Source: a phage
DNA length: 64,000 nt
Reading direction: 5' to 3' (one strand)
Sequence record: QB031382.1
The notes beneath the pieces were generated by a model, which was not told the DNA's origin, did not search any database, and saw nothing but the letters and a program-made list of their open reading frames with translations. Every line of letters begins with the position of its first letter. Positions within the stretch are counted from its first letter, which is position 1. Made by a program: the position numbers and the translations under genes. Shown one piece after another: positions 4,135-59,956 of this stretch.

Positions 4135-5111
4135 TGTCTGAAAAAACGATTACTATTAAAGAGAAGGGGATTGCCCTGTGCCATAAGGCGCAAGGCTATA
4201 GCGCTAACAACAGACCTGTATCTCTTTTGATGAAGAGTGATCTTCAGCCTGAGCAGTTGACAGACGATATTGTTAAGGCACTTCGCCAAGTTACTGTGGA
4301 GCTTAGTTTTGAAGAATACCTGCGTCGTTTCTTCGATATGTGGTATGACGATGCCAAGGCACTTGCACACATGCTTGGTTTTGAGATTGAAGAGGAAGCT
4401 TGGGCTAAAGAGCATCCTGATTGGGAATGGGCGCAAGCTGACGCAGAGTCTTGCATTGCATGGCTGGAAGAGCGTTGTGATAACGTGACCATTCATAAAG
4501 CTGCAAAAGAAGGCAAGCAGCTTAGTGTGGTAGATCAGTACAGCCTGTTAAAAACACAACAGATTTTTGAACAAGTAACCGCTGATCTCTTCGATAAAGA
4601 AGGGAACCTGATCAAGGCGGTACAGGAACCTGCTGAGGTGGATAAAACTACCGAGGTGGATGATGTTGCAAAATCCGCAAATACCGAGGAGAATCCGGTG
4701 GACGTAACCAAAACTAAAGAGTATCTGGATCTGCTGAAGCAAGTAGAAGAGCTGAAAGCAACCCAGAGTAAAGCTGAAGAAATCATCAAGGCCCAGGTTG
4801 AAGTTGAAAAAGCTAAAATGCTGGCTAAAGCTCAAGCTTTAAGCTTTGTTGGTGAAGAAGATCATGCAACCCTTGTTGACTTCATGCTGGAAAAAGCTAA
4901 CGAACCTATCGTAGCTATGCTGGAGAAAGCTCAAGCCAAAATTAAAGAGCTGGAAGCAGAGGTGCATAAAACCAAAGAAGAGTTTGCCACCACTGAACAT
5001 GGTAATGATGGCGAACCTGTTGTGGATGATATTGCAAAATCCGCAGAAGAAATTCTTGCTGAAAACGTTGCAAAAGCGCTTGCTCGTGCACGTGCAGAAT
5101 CTAACAAATAA
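4131..5111 (+). CDS. Scaffolding protein (putative)
   Basis: Acidic, Ala/Glu/Lys-rich, predicted coiled coil; lies between portal and capsid genes. Confidence 0.5.
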   Translation: MMSEKTITIKEKGIALCHKAQGYSANNRPVSLLMKSDLQPEQLTDDIVKALRQVTVELSFEEYLRRFFDMWYDDAKALAHMLGFEIEEEAWAKEHPDWEWAQADAESCIAWLEERCDNVTIHKAAKEGKQLSVVDQYSLLKTQQIFEQVTADLFDKEGNLIKAVQEPAEVDKTTEVDDVAKSANTEENPVDVTKTKEYLDLLKQVEELKATQSKAEEIIKAQVEVEKAKMLAKAQALSFVGEEDHATLVDFMLEKANEPIVAMLEKAQAKIKELEAEVHKTKEEFATTEHGNDGEPVVDDIAKSAEEILAENVAKALARARAESNK

Positions 5112-34856: not shown

Positions 34857-35543
34857 ATGGCAGAGATTAAGTCGGATGTTAACCACATCCACACTCTGCC
34901 AGATTTTGTTCAGGGGGGTCTTGACTACCTGCCTGGAGATTTTCTGGCTGAGAAGGTTAATTTAGTCACATTCTTAACCGTGTACCTTAAAAGGTTGGAG
35001 GATGTTGATAAGATGCTGGTAGGTTTGGCTGAAGGAAGATTGCTTAACAATGCCAGCGGAAGATACCTTGACGAAGTTGGTAATCAACTTGGTATTCTTA
35101 GGAATGGACTTTCAGATGCTGATTTTCGTGCCACACTAATTATTCAGCAGGCCGCAGCATCAAGGGGCGGGACTCGCGAAGATGTCATCTCCACCTTGCG
35201 ACAATTGTTCGGAAGAGACAATTTCGATACGTGGAAAGGAGACAACTTCAGGCTTGACATAAATATTAGAAAAACTTGCTTTGACATATTGCAGTCTATT
35301 GATCAGATCTTAGACATGCTACCATTGCCTTGTCATTTGCGTCTTACAGAATCGCAAGGGCAAGCTTTTGGTTTTGAAGGGGACTCTACAGCTCTTGGCT
35401 TCGGATCGGTGTGGGAAGAAAACCAATTCGGAGTTGGTGGGCTGGCTACTTTGTTGTATGTTCCTGACGTAAGACCTGACTGGGACACCACAACCATTTA
35501 TTGTGAAAGTATTACAGTAAACGCAACTAGACAGGAGGGTTAA
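34857..35543 (+). CDS. Baseplate or tail protein (P2 gpI-like, putative)
   Basis: 228-aa ORF directly after the baseplate-J-like gene. Confidence 0.35.
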   Translation: MAEIKSDVNHIHTLPDFVQGGLDYLPGDFLAEKVNLVTFLTVYLKRLEDVDKMLVGLAEGRLLNNASGRYLDEVGNQLGILRNGLSDADFRATLIIQQAAASRGGTREDVISTLRQLFGRDNFDTWKGDNFRLDINIRKTCFDILQSIDQILDMLPLPCHLRLTESQGQAFGFEGDSTALGFGSVWEENQFGVGGLATLLYVPDVRPDWDTTTIYCESITVNATRQEG

Positions 35544-37615
35544 TGGCAACAGCTGTTTTTAAACCTTACCGTGATTACTCTACAATGGCTGCACAGTTTC
35601 ATTACCGAACAGTTCAGGATACTGCTGTTCCTGGGAGGGATTATAATCATGTTGAGGGCGATGTAACTATCCCGGTTGGGGCAACCAGTATCGAGATCCC
35701 TGTAGAAATTGTTGACAAATTGCCAAACAGGTTGCCAAGAAGCTTCTTTATGGAGTTTTCATCAAACTCACAAGGGGTTATGATTGGAACACAAAGAGCG
35801 AAATGTACAATAGTTTCAGATGAGAATCTTGACAGAATATCTTGGGATACCGTTGAGGAGAGAATGTTTCACCCAAGATATTGGGTTACAACCACACAGC
35901 AGACTGAAAGCACCTGTATTGTTGCGGATAATAACTGCTGTATTAACCGTTTAGTGTCAAGAACATATGGAGGCATGGCTGGGTGCATTTGGGAAACAGT
36001 TGACAAGTATGACCATTTCGGCATTGGATTTGATGATCACTACGAGATGAGAAACACCAAGCTTTGGTTCAGAATGTCAATAACCAATGCCAGCAACTTC
36101 TCCACCCCTGAAAAGATGATTATGACTGTAGACCTTGTTGATGGCACAATCATCTATGTTCCTTTAGCTCAATATGCTGTCAGCATCTCAGAGGATAAGA
36201 ATGTTGCAGAAATTCATATTGATTTCGAGGACTGCGTCGGGATGGACCAGAACAACAACATGATGGGTGTTGATCCTCGGCAGGTGAGAAGGATTTTAAT
36301 ACCACTTATGCCTAAAGATTGGGTAAGTAATAGCACAGACCCAAGAACGGAAAATGTAGAGTGCGAGTTGCGTCTAGATCTGCTTCAGCCGGACACAGGC
36401 TGGAAAATGATGCAACTTAACAATATCCAGGTGAAAGAGCACGACGTCGGGATCTGCACAGCATATGACGATATGTGGAACGTATCTCCTTTAAGGGTGT
36501 TGAGCAATATCAAGCGTCTAGGCTATACCGGAACCATAAACCATTATGTTGGTATGAGCCATTATTATGATTACACATGGTCCGGAACTCAATGGTCTAT
36601 AAACAGAACAGGAGCTCTAAACGCTGCAGCTTACAAATGGCACGATGATTTTATGTACAATGCCAAACGACATGACTTTGATGTTATGCAGTCTGTAAGC
36701 TTTGAGCTTTACAGTGATGCCTGTCCGTTGGAATGGACCCAAAGGGATTGGAACGATAACTATGCTAAAACAGGCTATACACCTTGTAGTTACCTCCTGT
36801 CTCCAACCATTGAAGAGGGTATGAATTTCCTTACTGCAGTATTTAAGAATTTTGCATCAGCCGCTATGAGGAACAGCCTGCCAGTGATCATGCAGATTGG
36901 TGAACCGTGGTGGTGGTTCAATACCGATACTCGTAAGCCTTGTATTTATGACTACCCTACAAAACAGGCGTTTTATGATGAAACTGGTGAATATGCCCTA
37001 GACATTGGGACTATTGACGATCCTAAAACTGGTGGTGTTTATGACAAGTATGTAGCATTTTGTCGTGGTAAGCTTGGCGCTCGTATTGCAGCTATTTCAA
37101 AGGCAATAAAAGCACACGCTGCATCGGCTCAGATGACAGCCTTGCTGTTTTTCCCAACCATTATGGAAACCGAGCTTACGCAAAAACTGAACCTTGCCGA
37201 CCAATATAAAAAGGAAGCAGGCGCTCTTGATTTCTTCTGCACTGAGTGCTACGATTGGGTGATGCAGGGTGGTATTGAAAAGGCAAAAGAGTCTGTAAAC
37301 ATACCTATCGTTAAGTTAGGTTGGCAACCGTCTGAAATACAATACCTTGCAGGGTTCGTTCCTAGTAAAGAGCTTGCTCCAGTATATGGCTACGACCCAA
37401 CCAGGAATTACCAAGAATTTTTATGGAGATGTATTTGCGGAAACATGGCAACCATAGAGTATAGATACCCTGAGGTAAAACAGTATGTGTGGGCATACCC
37501 GCAAGTAATGTCTGACAGCATCACTGTTACCGCCAGAGATTCTACCGTGCTTCATATGGGGCAGGTTGCTCTGAAAGGGTATGTAGAAGATGTTGTCCCG
37601 CCAGACTTCTCATAA
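35543..37615 (+). CDS. Tail fibre/spike protein with N-terminal Calx-beta-like module
   Basis: 690 aa. N-terminus (VPGRDYNHVEGDVTIPVGATSIEIPVEIVD) resembles a Calx-beta/Ig-like module; remainder Trp/Cys-rich. Confidence 0.4.
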   Translation: MATAVFKPYRDYSTMAAQFHYRTVQDTAVPGRDYNHVEGDVTIPVGATSIEIPVEIVDKLPNRLPRSFFMEFSSNSQGVMIGTQRAKCTIVSDENLDRISWDTVEERMFHPRYWVTTTQQTESTCIVADNNCCINRLVSRTYGGMAGCIWETVDKYDHFGIGFDDHYEMRNTKLWFRMSITNASNFSTPEKMIMTVDLVDGTIIYVPLAQYAVSISEDKNVAEIHIDFEDCVGMDQNNNMMGVDPRQVRRILIPLMPKDWVSNSTDPRTENVECELRLDLLQPDTGWKMMQLNNIQVKEHDVGICTAYDDMWNVSPLRVLSNIKRLGYTGTINHYVGMSHYYDYTWSGTQWSINRTGALNAAAYKWHDDFMYNAKRHDFDVMQSVSFELYSDACPLEWTQRDWNDNYAKTGYTPCSYLLSPTIEEGMNFLTAVFKNFASAAMRNSLPVIMQIGEPWWWFNTDTRKPCIYDYPTKQAFYDETGEYALDIGTIDDPKTGGVYDKYVAFCRGKLGARIAAISKAIKAHAASAQMTALLFFPTIMETELTQKLNLADQYKKEAGALDFFCTECYDWVMQGGIEKAKESVNIPIVKLGWQPSEIQYLAGFVPSKELAPVYGYDPTRNYQEFLWRCICGNMATIEYRYPEVKQYVWAYPQVMSDSITVTARDSTVLHMGQVALKGYVEDVVPPDFS

Positions 37616-37627
37616 TCAGGAGATAAA

Positions 37628-38668
37628 ATGTCAAAACCTAGTTTTCCATTAGAGATTTGGGCAGAGGAGGATCAGGTTCTGCCTAACACCCACAGACAGA
37701 ACAGGCTACGCCCGATTGATGATTTGTGGAGAAAAGGTTGGGATCTTGGTCAAAAGCCATCCTGTGAAGAACTTAACTATATTTTCAATATGCTCGGGAC
37801 TTGGGCAAAATACATTGCTGACGAGCAGATCCCCGCTCAAGAAGGCCGCTATCTGGTACGTGATAATAACTTGAGTGATCTTTTGAACATCCCTGTTGCC
37901 CGTAGAAACCTTGGAATTATTACTAAGGAAGAGGCAGACGCCAGGTATGTAAAAGTTACAGGTGATACAATGACAGGCCCATTGGGTTTGCAACGTATCA
38001 ACTTTAAAGCTGCCGAGACAGATAAGGCTTGGATAGAGACAACTATTGGCCCAGATAAGACAACTCTTGACTTTGGGTTAAGTGATAATATTGGAGCGTT
38101 CGATGATGGTGGCACATCTACAGTGGATGCGTTCCGTTGGAGATTCCAGCCAACTCAGCCGGACATTAACCCAGAGTTCACTTTAATGTACCTGAACGCA
38201 ATCACGGCTAATCGTGCGTTGTTGAAAGTGGTGGGCAATGTTGAAGTTGTTGATAACATGCGGTGTAATAACCTCACCATTAGTAGCACAGCAACATTCA
38301 CCAACTGCAATGTAGCCAGTCAGTTGACAGCTGGGTCAGTATATGTCAATGGCGGTGCAAGTTGTGATAGTATGGTTGTAAGAAGCCAGCATTGTGTTGT
38401 CGGTAACAGAAATGTGGTGCGCTCTGTGAATGGAGTGACGGCTAACGGCAACGGCGATGTAACGATCACCATCCTACAGACAGGTGTACAGGATATCAGA
38501 ATCGGTGCAAGACTTGTTGATGGTGTTTCTGAATCTCCAGTTCGCAACGGCTACGTTGTCACAGGTTGGCATTTTGGTGATAAAAAAGAGATGCGTGGTT
38601 CAACCTACTGGGCAGGGCCTTTACAAAAACTTGTAAATGGTCAATGGATCACTGTTAATTATGCGTAG
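37628..38668 (+). CDS. Tail fibre protein (paralog A)
   Basis: Shares PLEIWA..D, LKGWD, GDTMTG, LQRI, FRWRFQP, LNAITANRA, RNVVR.VNG and VNGQWIT with the 39684 product. Confidence 0.65.
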   Translation: MSKPSFPLEIWAEEDQVLPNTHRQNRLRPIDDLWRKGWDLGQKPSCEELNYIFNMLGTWAKYIADEQIPAQEGRYLVRDNNLSDLLNIPVARRNLGIITKEEADARYVKVTGDTMTGPLGLQRINFKAAETDKAWIETTIGPDKTTLDFGLSDNIGAFDDGGTSTVDAFRWRFQPTQPDINPEFTLMYLNAITANRALLKVVGNVEVVDNMRCNNLTISSTATFTNCNVASQLTAGSVYVNGGASCDSMVVRSQHCVVGNRNVVRSVNGVTANGNGDVTITILQTGVQDIRIGARLVDGVSESPVRNGYVVTGWHFGDKKEMRGSTYWAGPLQKLVNGQWITVNYA

Positions 38669-38682
38669 ATCGGAGGACTAGC

Positions 38683-39267
38683 ATGAAAATACTTCAAGAG
38701 TTTAAGCTTTACCAGCCGGGATCTGGCGAATACCACACCAACAAAGGTACCAAGGAGCTGACTCCTCAGGAGGTTGAGGATTACACGGCATACACTGGAT
38801 ATTTTTTACGTAATGATGATGGTGATTGGTATGTGCAATCACGAACACTACGACAAGAAAATCCAGGCTGTATCTTCCTACTTGTTGACGAGAAGGGTAT
38901 TCTTAAGACATCTACAGAAGAACCTGATGCCTTGTGGCCTGCTCCAGGTCTTCGTGTGGTTATCGCCAAAAAAGAAGAGGTACCAGAAAACATTATGCTC
39001 CACCACGACGCTTTGCGTTTAGTTGGTGATGAATTTGTCACAGACAATGAATTCTTTGTTCAACAGGCAGAGGGTGTCATAGAGACAGAACTTGCTTGGG
39101 CTACTGCTAGAATTGGTGCCTATCAAGACATGATTGACCTTGAATACGATCTCACTGATGACCAAAAACGCAACATCAGAGATTTGAAAATGTACAGGGT
39201 AAAACTTCTTGAAATAGATACATCTAAAGCCCCTGACATTTTCTTCCCGGAACGACCTACCCTCTAA
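38683..39267 (+). CDS. Tail fibre assembly chaperone (Tfa-like)
   Basis: C-terminus DQKRNIRDLKMYRVKLLEIDTSKAPDIFFPERP matches the conserved Tfa C-terminal motif. Directly downstream of a fibre gene. Confidence 0.55.
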   Translation: MKILQEFKLYQPGSGEYHTNKGTKELTPQEVEDYTAYTGYFLRNDDGDWYVQSRTLRQENPGCIFLLVDEKGILKTSTEEPDALWPAPGLRVVIAKKEEVPENIMLHHDALRLVGDEFVTDNEFFVQQAEGVIETELAWATARIGAYQDMIDLEYDLTDDQKRNIRDLKMYRVKLLEIDTSKAPDIFFPERPTL

Positions 39268-39278
39268 GAGGAGGTGTT

Positions 39279-39593
39279 GTGGAGTTGGATTTGGCGGCAT
39301 TGTACGGTATCTGCATGGGTACCGTTGTCCCGATCTGTGTATGGGCTTTCAACCAGTGGCACACCAAATGGAAAGGCATTTCCAAGAGGCTGGATGAGCT
39401 GGAGAAAGACCTCATTTTAGTGAAAAATAGCATGGTTACAAAAGATAGACTTGATTCCATTATTGAGACCCGGTTAAGTAAGCTAGAGGCCGATATTAAC
39501 GACCTTAAGCAAGATGTCAGGACAGATGTCTCCGGTATCAGAGCCGATGTGCAAAAGATTTTACACATGCTTGTAGAGCACAGTAAAAGGTAA
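39279..39593 (+). CDS. Small membrane protein with N-terminal TM helix and coiled coil (holin, spanin-like or other)
   Basis: GTG start after AAGAGGAGG. LAALYGICMGTVVPICVWAF hydrophobic helix, then heptad-like coiled coil. Followed by a terminator. Confidence 0.45.
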   Translation: MELDLAALYGICMGTVVPICVWAFNQWHTKWKGISKRLDELEKDLILVKNSMVTKDRLDSIIETRLSKLEADINDLKQDVRTDVSGIRADVQKILHMLVEHSKR

Positions 39594-39603
39594 ACAAAGG
39601 TCA

Positions 39604-39623
39604 GAACGGCAAGGATGCCGTTC
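39604..39623 (+). terminator. Intrinsic terminator overlapping next promoter
   Basis: GAACGGCA / AGGA / TGCCGTTC followed by TTGCATTTTGTT. Confidence 0.5.
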
Positions 39624-39652
39624 TTGCATTTTGTTCTCTAAAGTGTTAAAAT
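39624..39652 (+). promoter_or_regulatory. Sigma70-like promoter
   Basis: TTGCAT, 17-nt spacer, TGTTAAAAT. Confidence 0.45.
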
Positions 39653-39683
39653 AGTCCTTAAGGAATTTTCTCAGGAGAACGTG

Positions 39684-40727
39684 ATGACTAAACCAGTTAT
39701 CCCTCTTGATATTTGGGCCAATCAGGATGTTGTGCTTGAAAATACAGGAGAGTTGAACAAATCTCAACCGAACAAAGAAGAGAGATTGAAAGGTTGGGAT
39801 ATGACACAAAGGATAGCATGTGAAGTTGTTAACTTTGAACTCCACATGCTCTCTGCGTGGCTAAAGCATTTAACAGAAGATGTTGTCCCAGGATGGGATA
39901 ATAGATTCTTAAGGGTCACTAATAATCTGGCAGACGTTCCAGACAAAGCTGCTGCACGTCAAGTTCTCAATGTATACTCGCCTGAAGAAATGGATGACCT
40001 TTATGTTGACAAGGCTGGAGACACAATGATCCAGACTCAAACTTTAGGTCTTCAAAGAATCGAGTTTGCATCCGCGTCAACAGATAGTGCGGCGATATAC
40101 ACCACTATAACTCCAGACAAGACGATGATGGATTTCTGGATTATGGACAACATCGGTGGTGCTGACGGCACAGACCTTGATGATCCCTCTCACCAAATAG
40201 ACGGTTTCCGTTGGAGATTTCAACCTTCTGGTGGGCAGCCTGTGTTTTCGGCTATGAAGCTCAATGCTATAACTGCCAACCGTGCAAGACTGGCTATCCA
40301 AGGAAATCTTGAATGCAATGATGCAAAAAGCTCCTCTGCAAATGCTAATGCGGTAACGATACCTAGAGCCACTGTTAATGGACAACAATCCTGCGGCAGC
40401 GCTCAAATAGATGGAAGAGTAGATTGTAACGATAAAACCGCCAGGGGTCAATATGCAACAGTTGGTGGAAGAAACGTGGTCCGCAGGGTAAATGGTAGTA
40501 GCGCAGACAGTAGTGGTAACCTTACTATTCCTATGCCTAGTAGGGGTGTTGAAGATGTAAGGATAGCAAACCGTTTCAGAACCACCTACAGAGAATCAAG
40601 AGTATACCCTGGGCATGTAATGTGCTCCGGCAATTACGCCTATAAACACCCGTATCAGGGCGACTATTGGACTGGAGCTATTCAAAAATTTGTAAACGGT
40701 CAATGGATCACCATATCTTATGCTTAA
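39684..40727 (+). CDS. Tail fibre protein (paralog B)
   Basis: ATG 39684 after AGGAG (GTG 39681 alternative). Shares the motif set with paralog A but diverges in the central and C-terminal regions. Confidence 0.65.
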   Translation: MTKPVIPLDIWANQDVVLENTGELNKSQPNKEERLKGWDMTQRIACEVVNFELHMLSAWLKHLTEDVVPGWDNRFLRVTNNLADVPDKAAARQVLNVYSPEEMDDLYVDKAGDTMIQTQTLGLQRIEFASASTDSAAIYTTITPDKTMMDFWIMDNIGGADGTDLDDPSHQIDGFRWRFQPSGGQPVFSAMKLNAITANRARLAIQGNLECNDAKSSSANANAVTIPRATVNGQQSCGSAQIDGRVDCNDKTARGQYATVGGRNVVRRVNGSSADSSGNLTIPMPSRGVEDVRIANRFRTTYRESRVYPGHVMCSGNYAYKHPYQGDYWTGAIQKFVNGQWITISYA

Positions 40728-40736
40728 AGAGGGTAA

Positions 40737-41003
40737 ATGAAATTAACTCAGTTTTTATGGGGACTGGTTGCAGCATCTGATGACCCTACAAAAGTGTCCC
40801 AATCTAAGCTATGGTCAAACATAGGCATGGCAGTGATGACTGGGGTGTTTATTCATATGGGGTACAATGATACGCTTCCTGAATGGTATGCGTGGATATA
40901 CGCACCTTCAGTAGCCTGCCCCCAGCTTATTAGCAAATTCATCTCGCTCCGGTGGGGTTGCCAGCACCCTGACCACGTTAAAAACGAAGAGCAAAAAGCT
41001 TAA
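40737..41003 (+). CDS. Small membrane protein (holin-like candidate)
   Basis: 88 aa with two or three hydrophobic segments and a charged C-terminus (HPDHVKNEEQKA). Confidence 0.4.
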   Translation: MKLTQFLWGLVAASDDPTKVSQSKLWSNIGMAVMTGVFIHMGYNDTLPEWYAWIYAPSVACPQLISKFISLRWGCQHPDHVKNEEQKA

Positions 41004-41012
41004 GGAGAAATC

Positions 41013-42758
41013 ATGGCGCAAGACATGACAAGCTTCGAGCAGGCGGTAGATCAAGTAATTGTTGATTCTGAACGTTTGCACTTGATTGTCAACGGTAACG
41101 CTGTGGATGAAGTTGTCGTAGAGGATGGGACCACCATCCCTACGGTACGAAAAGCCATGCTTGACACCCTTTATTTTAAAACGCCACCAATCCCTTGGGC
41201 GTATGGTGCATCCACAACAGTTTTTAACCAGTTATATGAGTTTAAAGGGGACACAGGCCCTCAGTGGTGGTACGCTCCCGCAGCATCAAAATCTAACCCG
41301 GTTAGAATGCCAGCAGATCCTTCACAATCTCCGAACTGGAGATTATATACCGATTCTGCAGTAATGGCAAAATACTACGCAAAACTTAACAGCCCAAGAT
41401 TCGAAGGTGACCCGCGAGTACCTACACCTCCAATGGACGATAAGTCCGAGTCTATAGCAAACACAGAGTTTGTTGTGGACTATGTGGATAGCATATTTAA
41501 AGCCATGGAGGGGATGAAAGTTACTGTAGGGTCTTTGGTGGTAAAAGGTCTTACAGAACTTGCTAACACCATAGTTGGTGGCACCCTTACCTTACATGGG
41601 CCTGTTAATGGAGCGGATTCTACTGCACGCTTCAGGAACCTAATCCTTACTGCAAATACTTCTACACTGACTTTTGCGTGGAGCGATCCTAAGCATGCAG
41701 ACTGGAGAAGCACAGAGCTGCAACCTCATGAAGTAGCCACCCACAGAGTTATAGCTGACACTATAACTTCTGGGAAACCAGTGGCTAATAACAACGATGT
41801 GCATTTTGATGGTCTAGGTAATAACTTTTTTGACTACGTGTACATTCGTGGTAATGCCATGAAGGCAGCAACCGAACCGACATTGCAGGTCGATGGGACC
41901 ACCAGGGTTAAGAACCTTGAGGTGACAGGCACCGTTACAGGAATAACCTACTCTGTAGATGGCACCATGATCTACCCTAGCTATATTGAAAGCACAGGAG
42001 ATGCACTGATCAATGGAGATTTAGAGGTTGGCGGATCTATAGTCATTCGTGGCACAGCATCTGTCCAGAACATATCTTTAAATACTCTGAGGGTGAATGA
42101 GCGTGCCACTTTTGAAGGAGAAGGGCTTACAGCCAACAAAGGTGCAATTACCGAGCTGACAACCACTACTCTAACTGCAACAACTGCAAACTCTGAAAAC
42201 TGCAACGTTACCCGCAACTTGCAGGTAAATGGAGATGTTAGTTTAAACGCAGCAGGTACGGGAACCACTTATCTTCACAACCTTGGAATATCCGGCACGG
42301 TGACTGGGTGGCTGCCAGACTTCTCTAATGTTAACTTTGTCTGCAACGGCATTAACTCCAGTGGTAAGATAACCACCTCTCAAGAAATTGAGGCTGGTAA
42401 AACCATTACTGCCCCTACTTTCCACGCAGGAAAGGTAGATTTTGATTTAGAGGAGGTTGACGCATCTAGTGGGACATGGACACCTAACGGGCAGGCCAGC
42501 ATGTATGTTGTCCACGCGAAAGGGGATTTTACAATAGGCCAATGGCCTGGAACATCGGCTGAAGATAAACCTTACCCGTTTACTGCAATCATCTATGTCA
42601 TTCAAGATGCTGTAGGTCACAACGTGACTTTGCACGATAAGTATGCTATCCTGTCGGCAACACCTGTTATTAACAACAAGGCTAACAGTGTTACCTTGCT
42701 GCAATTAACGTATTGTGGTGTTGGTGATATCGTAGACGTAGTAATTGCACAACGTTAA
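41013..42758 (+). CDS. Tail fibre protein (putative)
   Basis: 581 aa, Thr/Gly/Asn/Val-rich beta-type composition; lies in the fibre cluster. Confidence 0.45.
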   Translation: MAQDMTSFEQAVDQVIVDSERLHLIVNGNAVDEVVVEDGTTIPTVRKAMLDTLYFKTPPIPWAYGASTTVFNQLYEFKGDTGPQWWYAPAASKSNPVRMPADPSQSPNWRLYTDSAVMAKYYAKLNSPRFEGDPRVPTPPMDDKSESIANTEFVVDYVDSIFKAMEGMKVTVGSLVVKGLTELANTIVGGTLTLHGPVNGADSTARFRNLILTANTSTLTFAWSDPKHADWRSTELQPHEVATHRVIADTITSGKPVANNNDVHFDGLGNNFFDYVYIRGNAMKAATEPTLQVDGTTRVKNLEVTGTVTGITYSVDGTMIYPSYIESTGDALINGDLEVGGSIVIRGTASVQNISLNTLRVNERATFEGEGLTANKGAITELTTTTLTATTANSENCNVTRNLQVNGDVSLNAAGTGTTYLHNLGISGTVTGWLPDFSNVNFVCNGINSSGKITTSQEIEAGKTITAPTFHAGKVDFDLEEVDASSGTWTPNGQASMYVVHAKGDFTIGQWPGTSAEDKPYPFTAIIYVIQDAVGHNVTLHDKYAILSATPVINNKANSVTLLQLTYCGVGDIVDVVIAQR

Positions 42759-59455: not shown

Positions 59456-59956
59456 GTGAAAATTAAGATCTTTGCTATTATTTTGAGCGCATTTTTATCG
59501 CTGCCTGTTGTTGCAGCACCAAAACAAAAAGTATATCACACCTGCAAGCCATCGGATACTAAGGAAAACATTCTAGCATGTAATATCTACAGGGAGGCTA
59601 GAGGGGATGGCACGATGGGTATGCTGGCATCAGGGTTTGCCACACTAAACAGGAAATCTCACCCCAAATACCCGGACACCATAAGAAAGATTGTCTACCA
59701 ACCTAACCAGTTTTCGTGGACAAACCACGGCAAAACTTTTAAGGTGACAGAAAAAGATTCATGGGATCACGCTAAAAGTCTTGCAAAGATGCTTCTAAAG
59801 GTCTATAATAACAACCATGTTGCATACATGGCTATGGATATAACAGGTGGAGCAACACACTATCATACAACAAAAGTACGACCGAAATGGGCAAAAAAGA
59901 TGCAGAGGACAGCTCAATTCGGGAGTCATATCTACTACAAGGAGCGCAATAAATGA
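59456..59956 (+). CDS. Secreted cell-wall hydrolase (SleB/CwlJ Hydrolase_2-like), candidate endolysin
   Basis: GTG start after GGAG. N-terminal signal-peptide-like MKIKIFAIILSAFLSLPVVAAP. Domain motifs NIYREARGDG ... GGATHYHT ... RPKWA. Confidence 0.6.
   Translation: MKIKIFAIILSAFLSLPVVAAPKQKVYHTCKPSDTKENILACNIYREARGDGTMGMLASGFATLNRKSHPKYPDTIRKIVYQPNQFSWTNHGKTFKVTEKDSWDHAKSLAKMLLKVYNNNHVAYMAMDITGGATHYHTTKVRPKWAKKMQRTAQFGSHIYYKERNK

Follow-up and report, generated by a model that had tools for sequence, protein, structure and literature searches.

The DNA analysed here is a stretch of 64,000 nucleotides (nt) of phage origin (sequence record QB031382.1), called the window below, and the gene under study is an open reading frame (ORF) on its + strand at 39279..39593. 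It starts with GTG and encodes a protein of 104 amino acids (aa). Both the ORF call and homology identify it as the counterpart of ORF 31 of phage rV5 (rv5_gp031, here gp31), a member of PHROG 5345, which is annotated as of unknown function. The region 37600-41100 shares 98.9% identity with Escherichia phage VB-EcoM-WM and 98.6% with FV3, and it matches 117 phage records, nearly all of them rV5-like. The window therefore belongs to a Vequintavirus (Vequintavirinae). Its late structural genes lie on the + strand and are followed by genes for a SleB-like hydrolase, rIIA and rIIB. In the rV5 paper, ORF 31 is listed as a ‘membrane protein, 1 TMD’ (one transmembrane domain), without mass spectrometry (MS) evidence. 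Annotation as a hypothetical membrane protein is thus what was known before; the module of membrane proteins to which gp31 belongs, the argument on its topology, the assignment of a beta-layer in its coiled coil and the parallel with the releasin of phage Mu are new.

The gene carries its own expression signals. A Shine-Dalgarno (SD) sequence, GGAGGTG, can be read directly at 39270..39276 (+), 2 nt before the start codon, and both the GTG start and the SD sequence are kept in three diverged Vequintavirus lineages (rV5, P0003 and P0007). In other genera an ATG start is found at the same aligned position. A dual-start motif was considered and rejected, since the TTG that forms codon 3 here has not been kept: the P0003 lineage has TTA. 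Downstream of the gene, RNA folding detects an intrinsic-terminator-like hairpin with a T-rich tail (39603..39634, +; stem-loop 39603-39624), whose stem of 9 bp is followed by TGCATTTTGT; it ends the transcription unit gp36...gp31. The 66 nt from 39585 to 39650 fold with -21.9 kcal/mol (z = -4.56), and none of 200 shuffled sequences folds as well. The strong ribosome binding site and the terminator that a first-pass annotation, made from the letters alone, had attributed to this gene are therefore both present. Beyond the hairpin, upstream of the second fibre gene, lies GTGTTAAAATA (39643..39653, +), a putative late promoter that resembles the motif TggTAaAAtA described as the late promoter of rV5 (PMC3606486); an equivalent GCTAAAATA is kept at this spot in two diverged lineages. 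The ratio of nonsynonymous to synonymous substitution (dN/dS) of gp31 is 0.035 in comparison with rV5, and 0.044 in comparison with a lineage at 86% protein identity in which synonymous sites are saturated. gp31 is a real gene under strong purifying selection.

Hydropathy and charge pattern place a single transmembrane (TM) helix at about residues 5-24 (codons 39291..39350, +), preceded by a tail of four residues, M-E-L-D, whose Asp4 is invariant. The Kyte-Doolittle maximum over 19 residues is 1.91 (residues 5-23), above the usual cut-off of 1.6, and homologues reach 2.1-2.35. The N-terminal TM helix noticed at first pass is thus supported by prediction, and gp31 is the sole strongly hydrophobic small protein of the late structural region of the window. 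An alignment of 16 family members was used to examine topology. In all 16, the N-terminal tail has 3-6 residues, a net charge of -1 or -2 and no lysine or arginine, while 3-5 lysines or arginines are found within 15 residues after the TM segment. Under the positive-inside rule, an acidic tail and a basic flank of this kind predict an N-out/C-in orientation, in which the helical domain of 80 residues that follows the TM segment would be cytoplasmic. Between this genus and the others, identity is 0-30% in the TM segment and 22-39% in the cytoplasmic domain, the better conserved of the two. M1, D4 and D59 are invariant in the family, and L41, T54 and K55 are nearly so.

The predicted cytoplasmic coiled coil covers residues 31-104 (codons 39369..39590, +), with heptads up to residue 51 and hendecads from residue 58. 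In the family alignment, the aliphatic core occupies columns 38/41/45/48/52 and then 58/62/66/69/73/76/80/84/87/91/95/98. From 58 onwards the period is 11 residues, with h positions at 58, 69, 80 and 91 and a positions at 62, 73, 84 and 95. One clade carries an indel of exactly 7 residues within the coiled coil, and AlphaFold2 draws the monomer as one uninterrupted helix from residue 3 to residue 103 (mean predicted local distance difference test score, 68). The long coiled coil proposed at first pass is upheld by these three lines of evidence.

Between the two halves of the coiled coil, the register breaks at M-V-T-K-D: the core passes from 52 to 58, and no core residue is present at 55/56. 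The conservation of this segment and the register jump make M52-V53-T54-K55-D56-R57 (codons 39432..39449, +) a candidate beta-layer, a trimer-specific break. Across the family, the first five positions are M in 13/16 members, V or I in 16/16, T in 15/16, K in 14/16 and D or E in 14/16, and the sixth position is variable. The published consensus is [aliphatic]-A-T-K-[polar]-[DE], in a register scheme abcdefg-beta-beta-beta-efg..., and the only known carriers of such motifs are trimers, for the most part fibre proteins of phages (PMC4786415). When the family profile was compared with the PDB, the best sequence match was 6h9l (E = 9e-4), a structure of three chains with MATKED repeats, followed by GCN4-MATKDD fusions. 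Given the fit of the motif to a trimeric consensus and the match to 6h9l, the coiled coil of gp31 is probably a parallel trimer with a beta-layer break at M-V-T-K-D.

Beta-layers are a feature of alpha/beta coiled coils (Hartmann et al. 2016), among them the stalk of DUF1640/MCUR1-CCDC90B-type membrane proteins and PDB 6h9l; these share with gp31 the motif [aliphatic]-[AV]-T-K-[DE] at a register break, with heptads before it and hendecads after it. In proteins of the DUF1640 type, the motif stands at the start of a C-terminal stalk (PMC4786415). Like these proteins, gp31 would be a membrane-anchored coiled-coil stalk. Differences are also evident: gp31 has one copy of the motif only, with Val and not Ala at position 2 and a variable position 6, and AlphaFold2 draws its monomer as a continuous helix. 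Moreover, gp31 gives no match to Pfam DUF1640, and its TM segment is N-terminal. In DUF1640 proteins the TM segment lies at the C-terminal end.

An N-terminal TM helix followed by a coiled coil is also the architecture of a spanin, and the first-pass annotation had read gp31 as spanin-like. Under this hypothesis, gp31 would span the periplasm, either as an Rz-like i-spanin or as a unimolecular spanin. Aside from the architecture, 6 of the 16 family members match phrog_739 ‘Rz-like spanin’ (best E = 4.4e-5), and so does the phi92-like homologue described below (2.5e-4). Lambda Rz, T4 PseT.3 and rV5 ORF67 are, like gp31, small late proteins with an N-terminal TM segment and then a coiled coil; they differ from gp31 in having an o-spanin partner and a topology opposite to the one predicted for gp31. 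An i-spanin subunit must be N-in/C-out, and we discarded this candidate because the charge pattern of all 16 family members predicts the reverse. No lipobox ORF was found on the same strand within, overlapping or adjacent to 39279-39593, and the first pass had likewise seen no overlapping lipoprotein partner; the search for an embedded lipobox ORF returned a single ‘lipobox’ match, in the middle of the protein of an antisense ORF. In addition, spanins have been catalogued elsewhere in these genomes. The spanin census lists separate i- and o-spanins in rV5, FV3, PVP-SE1 and CR3 and overlapped ones in phi92, and according to the CB7 paper the pair adjoins the large terminase gene in CB7, rV5 and PVP-SE1. 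In rV5, these are ORF67 and ORF66, named spanins in RefSeq and placed in spanin PHROGs (phrog_4297 and phrog_1267); they fall just outside the window. Comparison of the gp31 family with ORF67 by hhalign gave a score of 11.9 (E = 0.25), which means no similarity, and four other i-spanins scored 12-18 on fragments. Finally, the gp31 domain of about 80 residues is shorter than the periplasmic domains listed for the i-spanins of these phages. Altogether, a spanin function appears extremely improbable.

Evidence on the location of gp31 comes from studies of virions. The shotgun proteome of the rV5 virion comprises 19 proteins identified by MS, gp31 not being one of them, and none of five gp31 tryptic peptides searched for is present in the stored rV5 MS tables. 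Because a proteome of 19 proteins is shallow, absence from it is, on its own, weak evidence. In CB7, a Certrevirus, 26 virion proteins were identified by MS, including CB7_31, 36 and 37 and excluding CB7_32-35; by synteny, the latter are a fibre assembly protein, the gp31 homologue (CB7_33) and the two membrane proteins that accompany it, referred to below as B and C. The component lists of a cryo-EM study of phi92 (2026) do not include the counterparts of these small proteins either. Hence neither gp31 nor gp29 appears in the rV5, CB7 and phi92 lists as a structural component, and this negative evidence argues with moderate weight that gp31 is non-virion. A contrary reading would make gp31 a minor virion component, for instance a trimeric coiled coil that resembles a whisker and belongs to the baseplate or the fibres. 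Some GenBank records call gp31 a ‘tail fiber protein’, and weak coiled-coil matches to fibritin and to a short tail fibre were found; set against the MS data, the modelled phi92 components and a strongly hydrophobic N-terminal TM segment, they leave this reading highly improbable.

Homologues of gp31 were detected by tblastn in 224 phage records. Identity is at least 95% within Vequintavirus (117 records) and 24-35% in Seunavirus, Mydovirus, Avunavirus, Certrevirus and their relatives. An exhaustive HMMER search among 1.84 billion proteins yielded 12 cluster representatives. Seven of them (P0007, P0009-P0011, P0013, P0014 and P0018) are full-length homologues of 102-112 aa built on the same plan, and P0008 is a truncated copy. 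P0015-P0017 were rejected as unrelated repeat or coiled-coil proteins. P0012 (207 aa) is peculiar in that its residues 137-203 are the cytoplasmic coiled coil of a gp31 homologue, fused to an unrelated N-terminal domain and without a TM segment; it may be either a chimeric assembly or a natural fusion. When one genome per species was examined for 185,579 bacterial and archaeal species with a narrower alignment of the family, it was found in a single phage-like contig of a metagenome-assembled genome (MAG). With so few homologues and one MAG contig, the family seems confined to one lineage of virulent myoviruses. Two further relatives extend its range. The homologue of Aeromonas Plateaulakevirus matches phrog_5345 with E = 6e-11, and a phi92-like protein of 113 aa (phage PD06, L008 8933-9274) matches it with E = 6e-4 and aligns with the family in hhalign over the most conserved motif (E = 1.7e-4); the latter is a probable distant homologue of gp31, as judged from its sequence.

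Scans of gp31 against Pfam, NCBIfam, PHROGs and PADLOC returned its own PHROG 5345 and otherwise sub-threshold coiled-coil noise, and a word-indexed protein search retrieved close relatives only. Weak PHROG matches among the 16 family members are distributed over several families: phrog_404 ‘minor tail protein’ is matched by 11, the spanin-like phrog_739 by six, as mentioned above, and phrog_736 by four (best E = 0.01).

Several database labels in this family deserve a comment. In GenBank, homologues of gp31 and of protein B bear unfounded names: PcCB7V has ‘ATP synthase subunit b protein’ and ‘putative serine protease’, EspYZU08 has ‘DNA-directed DNA polymerase’, and several records of rV5-like phages have ‘tail fiber protein’. 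The PD06 protein is labelled ‘lipoprotein’ (phrog_15210) and has neither a cysteine nor a lipobox; its plan and its position after a fibre assembly gene are those of gp31. Around 16-21 records named ‘Campylobacter phage’ (MG0656xx) are at least 90% identical to E. coli rV5-like phages in this region, which makes their host label doubtful.

As indicated at first pass, gp31 is embedded in a fibre cluster. Upstream are a short tail fibre gene (the gp33 homologue; 37628..38668, +) and a gene for a Caudo_TAP tail fibre assembly protein (the gp32 homologue; 38683..39267, +). Downstream is a second short tail fibre gene (the gp30 homologue; 39681..40727, +), whose product is 45% identical to gp33, and then the gp29 homologue (40737..41003, +), which encodes a protein of 88 aa belonging to PHROG 1322, with two weakly hydrophobic helices and a charged C-terminal tail. 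Further upstream, the gp34 homologue (35543-37615, +) encodes a protein of 690 aa in which a Calx-beta domain occurs together with two domains of a ‘non-contractile tail sheath protein’, the N-terminal one and the TIM barrel (PF23844 and PF23845; E = 1e-79); the phage has a contractile tail. In rV5, gp34 has MS evidence as a virion protein.

Comparison with other genera revealed that gp31 is the first gene of a membrane-protein module. In PVP-SE1, KpS8, Av-05, PcCB7V, LTH01 and SSBI34, the genes for a short fibre and its assembly protein precede A, B and C, and a long fibre gene follows them; here A is the gp31 family, B is a protein of 152-157 aa with 4-5 hydrophobic segments (PHROG 7451) and C is the gp29 family (86-91 aa; PHROG 1322). 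In this arrangement, the reading frames of A and B share 4 nt, and in several genera the start of the gp31-family gene overlaps or abuts the stop codon of the chaperone gene. Aeromonas phage 2L372D has the order A, an unannotated B-like ORF and C; this ORF (L009 ~4490-4930), which fills the apparent gap that separates the gp31-like gene from the gp29-like one, encodes a polytopic membrane protein, the counterpart of protein B. Two metagenomic lineages have no B, and C follows A directly; in one of them (L022), A and C overlap by 4 nt and are translationally coupled. In the other (L011), the A-C pair comes after a baseplate-J gene and not after a fibre or chaperone gene. In the genus of the window and in a sister lineage 53% identical to it, the slot of B is occupied by the terminator, the late-promoter-like motif and the second short-fibre gene, so that A and C stand one gene apart. 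A fibre-gene insertion has replaced the membrane-protein gene B in the window's genus. Synteny across all these lineages thus indicates that A and C travel together and that B is dispensable, and from this we infer a partnership between gp31 and gp29.

The gp29 family is wider than the gp31 family: it is found in 369 phage records, which include phi92-like, phAPEC8-like and Aeromonas phages, always beside tail or baseplate genes. Its core is highly conserved (SHTK-WSNIG...EWY-W-YAP...LISK-ISLRWG) and its charged C-terminal tail is variable. In a sister lineage (L014 7471-7839), the gp29 homologue bears a C-terminal extension of 35 residues with GGRYP repeats and many acidic residues, which shows that the tail can vary freely. 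The name ‘membrane protein-holin’ is given to a gp29 homologue in one GenBank record, on annotation only. A relationship of gp29 with DUF2644 was considered and rejected, as the match is weak (E = 0.036), Mu gp24, gp26 and gp20 do not match DUF2644, and the family is not mentioned in the literature found. The module and the partner one gene downstream had escaped the first-pass annotation, which was right about anatomy and location; it had also overlooked that a position of this kind could mean assembly of fibres or baseplate.

According to this alternative, gp31 would be a membrane-tethered, trimeric coiled-coil scaffold or chaperone for the short tail fibre (gp33/gp30) or for attachment at the baseplate periphery, active in the cytoplasm, itself non-virion and a membrane-anchored functional counterpart of small coiled-coil fibre chaperones such as T4 gp57A. 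The latter is a small coiled-coil chaperone of short and long tail fibres that has no TM segment, and T4 gp12 needs it. Compared by description alone, gp57A and a gp31 of this kind would both be small, non-virion, all-helical oligomers linked to gp12-like short fibres. The gene order is favourable to the idea, since gp31 directly follows the short fibre and Caudo_TAP genes in Vequintavirinae, phi92-like phages and Aeromonas Plateaulakevirus, with the overlapping or abutting chaperone genes mentioned above. The predicted topology places the coiled coil where fibres fold, and the absence of gp31 from virions is that of a chaperone. Likewise, gp31 evolves slowly, as structural genes do (at least 95% identity in the 117 Vequintavirus records), and 11/16 members weakly match the ‘minor tail protein’ PHROG. 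Two reported facts can be added: rV5 gp30 and gp33 resemble T4 gp12 (PMC3606486), and beta-layer motifs occur only in trimers, mostly phage fibre proteins (PMC4786415). On the other hand, a soluble chaperone has no need of a membrane anchor, and B and C, the conserved companions of gp31, are membrane proteins that lack soluble domains. The L011 A-C pair, which follows baseplate-J, has neither a fibre nor a chaperone gene beside it, and scans of Pfam, PHROGs and NCBIfam gave no similarity to known chaperone families. On balance, we consider an assembly role somewhat unlikely, yet one to be taken seriously.

Exclusion genes are often found beside fibre genes, and a superinfection-exclusion or host-takeover membrane protein (Imm-, Cor- or Llp-like) beside the receptor-binding proteins was therefore also contemplated. 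PHROG files gp29 under ‘moron, auxiliary metabolic gene and host takeover’, and all proteins of the module are membrane proteins. However, gp31 is expressed from a late structural operon and is a core gene across at least three phage groups, not a sporadic one. Some four periplasmic residues cannot mask an outer-membrane receptor, and the adsorption accessory suggested at first pass is hard to reconcile with so short a tail. PADLOC gave only weak coiled-coil matches (JetC, E = 0.006; LeoC, E = 0.0015), which we regard as noise, and the family is essentially absent from bacterial genomes and prophages, with the one phage-like MAG contig among 185,579 species. An exclusion or takeover function is, in our opinion, very unlikely.

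A closer parallel is found in phage Mu. The Mu gp25 protein, or ‘releasin’, has 99 aa and a predicted N-out/C-in topology with four periplasmic residues and a cytoplasmic domain of 73 aa; it is made late and is required to free an endolysin of the signal-anchor-release (SAR) type (PMC9239132). Its family (DUF2730, PF10805, phrog_736) resembles gp31 in size (99 versus 104 aa), in the single N-terminal TM segment, in the predicted topology and in a helical cytoplasmic domain of 73-80 aa. Both proteins are late, and neither is a holin by sequence. The resemblance reaches minor details: the acidic N-terminal tail reads M-D-L in Mu and M-x-[LIV]-D in the gp31 family, the helix breaks at residues 51-56 in both families, and both end in an LL[LM]EN-like sequence. 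At the break, however, Mu has P-G-[AT]-E-D where gp31 has M-V-T-K-D, and the cytoplasmic domain is predominantly anionic in Mu (PMC9239132) and about neutral in gp31 (net charge -1 to +3). Genomic location differs as well. DUF2730 genes are found in transposable phages only, within five genes downstream of the endolysin (PMC9239132), while gp31 is in the tail-fibre cluster of virulent myoviruses whose soluble endolysin is far away.

To quantify this likeness, the gp31 family was aligned by hhalign with two Mu gp25 alignments. The E values were 1.1e-4 (57% probability) and 4.6e-4 (33%) for full-length alignments over 85-92 columns, with local scores of 27.4 and 25.8. Among controls, 40 full column shuffles reached 13.8 at most, the reversed alignment 14.2, and the four i-spanins mentioned above 12-18 on short fragments. 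Shuffles that preserved the TM segment reached at most 18.3 (n = 40) and 22.2 (n = 60), and none of these 100 attained the real score. PVP-SE1 gp43 matches phrog_736, the PHROG of Mu gp25, over its full length (E = 0.01). In contrast, PF10805 gave no match at E <= 1 with the protein of the window or with its PVP-SE1 and PcCB7V homologues, whereas Mu gp25 itself scores 50 bits. Weak matches are spread over many PHROGs that combine a TM segment with a coiled coil, and much of the similarity may therefore be architectural. We therefore regard DUF2730 as the nearest functional model of gp31 and a possible remote relative, and do not assign gp31 to it.

Another look-alike is XhlA (PF10779), whose match to gp31 is below threshold (16 bits against a cut-off of 34.7 bits; E = 0.014, over 21 residues). 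XhlA/BhlA-type proteins, found in lysis cassettes of Bacillus phages and PBSX, are small proteins with a TM segment and a coiled coil, encoded after tail-fibre genes and before small membrane proteins. The TM segment of XhlA is C-terminal. No amidase or endolysin gene follows gp31, and BhlA gave no match.

How do phages of this group lyse their host? The endolysin of rV5, ORF89, is a soluble lambda-R-like protein without a SAR or TM segment, encoded around 49 kb from gp31 in rV5. A soluble endolysin should need a holin system. Holin candidates for Vequintavirinae have been proposed on topology only, in the rV5 and CB7 papers; the latter puts forward CB7_82, of 65 aa, as the holin candidate of Certrevirus. 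In rV5, the proposed holin ORF129 has two strong TM domains and a basic C-terminal tail, the pattern of a class II holin, and is restricted to the genus and fast-evolving (53-100% identity). ORF129 is thus a plausible class II holin candidate, a circumstance that neither confirms nor excludes a lysis role for gp31. ORF90 of rV5, of 68 aa and directly after the endolysin (L019 1110-1316), was rejected as a holin since its N-terminus, LFMAACLAC, is like that of a signal peptide or a lipoprotein. The genome announcements of Murica and Mydo say nothing on lysis genes, and in a CRISPRi-ART study of the rV5-like phage EdH4 the targets reported are only the major capsid protein and rIIA/rIIB. The window also encodes a secreted SleB-like cell-wall hydrolase of 166 aa (59456..59956, +), with a strongly hydrophobic N-terminal signal MKIKIFAIILSAFLSLPVVAAP...; rIIA and rIIB come directly after its gene. 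A role in lysis has been suggested for the homologue in CR3, and that of CB7 is toxic on expression (CB7 paper). This hydrolase is a second muralytic enzyme besides the soluble endolysin, and conceivably a client of a membrane-tethered lysis accessory.

Could gp31 itself be the holin? It would then be a hole-forming protein with a single TM domain, N-out/C-in, possibly with gp29 as antiholin or co-holin. It does have the generic features of holins (small size, at least one TM domain, a charged C-terminus), which are not specific, and it is a late membrane protein in a subfamily with a soluble endolysin and without a verified holin; the GenBank label of the gp29 homologue points in the same direction. 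Nonetheless, gp31 matched no holin family in Pfam, PHROGs or NCBIfam, its TM segment is its least conserved part, and its cytoplasmic domain is a long structured coiled coil. No endolysin gene lies beside the gp31 module in any genome examined, and rV5 ORF129 is a better fit to the classical class II pattern. We hence regard a pore-forming gp31 as quite unlikely. In broader terms, gp31 may be the holin-like or lysis protein evoked at first pass: the lack of a holin-family match and of a neighbouring endolysin speaks against it, and the releasin-like architecture, late expression and lack of detection in virions speak for it.

Any interpretation has to account for a late, non-virion membrane protein of the core gene set, with a functional domain that is predicted to be cytoplasmic and is probably trimeric, and with constant linkage to another small membrane protein. 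A tentative interpretation, to which we assign a probability of roughly 35%, is that gp31 may be a lysis-control accessory that acts with gp29; we rank it best because it fits these facts and has a characterised precedent. In this model, gp31 would be a non-virion, late, bitopic protein of the inner membrane, with around four acidic residues in the periplasm, one TM segment and a coiled coil of 80 residues in the cytoplasm. It would be encoded by the first gene of a module in which A (gp31) is joined by C (gp29), with or without a polytopic B, and which closes the baseplate/short-fibre operon of Vequintavirinae and related myoviruses. The protein might accumulate late and oligomerise through its coiled coil at the cytoplasmic face of the inner membrane. 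Together with gp29, it might then help to trigger or to time the step at which the membrane is made permeable or a muralytic enzyme is set free, in the manner of Mu gp25 or of a holin companion.

The late operon position, with an SD sequence and a terminator of its own, is consistent with such a role, and so is the nature of gp29, a small protein with two weakly hydrophobic helices and a variable charged C-terminal tail; A and C have been kept together through rearrangements. T4 offers a precedent for a lysis gene that closes a fibre cluster: its holin gene t comes directly after tail-fibre genes 37-38.

A number of observations weigh against lysis control. In the genomes examined, gp31 is never near the endolysin, while DUF2730 genes lie within five genes downstream of one. 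No match of gp31 to Pfam DUF2730, holin or XhlA families attains the threshold, and the hhalign probability of a relationship with Mu gp25 is just 33-57%; phrog_404 and phrog_739 are matched by more members (11/16 and 6/16) than phrog_736 (4/16), and score as well or better. The most conserved part of gp31 is the cytoplasmic helix and not the TM segment, unlike in typical holins, and other holin candidates exist, namely rV5 ORF129 and CB7_82. Lastly, an assembly role would account equally well for the strict synteny with the genes for fibre and chaperone. A bolder version of the lysis-control hypothesis is that gp31 is a distant relative of Mu releasin which, with gp29 (and B where present), forms the inner-membrane lysis-control system of Vequintavirinae, phi92-like phages and Plateaulakevirus; we deem this version unlikely. 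The probabilities that we attach to the various readings add up to less than 1, and what remains corresponds to a role outside those considered.

Myoviruses of the rV5, PVP-SE1 and phi92 types are widely used in phage therapy and biocontrol, and they have no verified holin. Every genome of the group encodes gp31 and gp29, two non-virion membrane proteins that belong to the core gene set and evolve slowly. As to annotation, the labels ‘tail fiber protein’, ‘lipoprotein’, ‘ATP synthase subunit b’ and ‘DNA-directed DNA polymerase’ are unfounded. If gp31 acted in assembly, it would be a rare case of membrane-tethered morphogenesis of tail fibres or baseplate. If it acted in lysis control, the holin gap of these phages would be filled and the releasin concept would extend beyond Mu-like phages. 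Should the kinship with Mu gp25 also be true, gp31 would be the first releasin-type protein outside transposable phages, one that works with a soluble endolysin, is encoded in a baseplate/fibre operon and is built on a trimeric beta-layer coiled coil.

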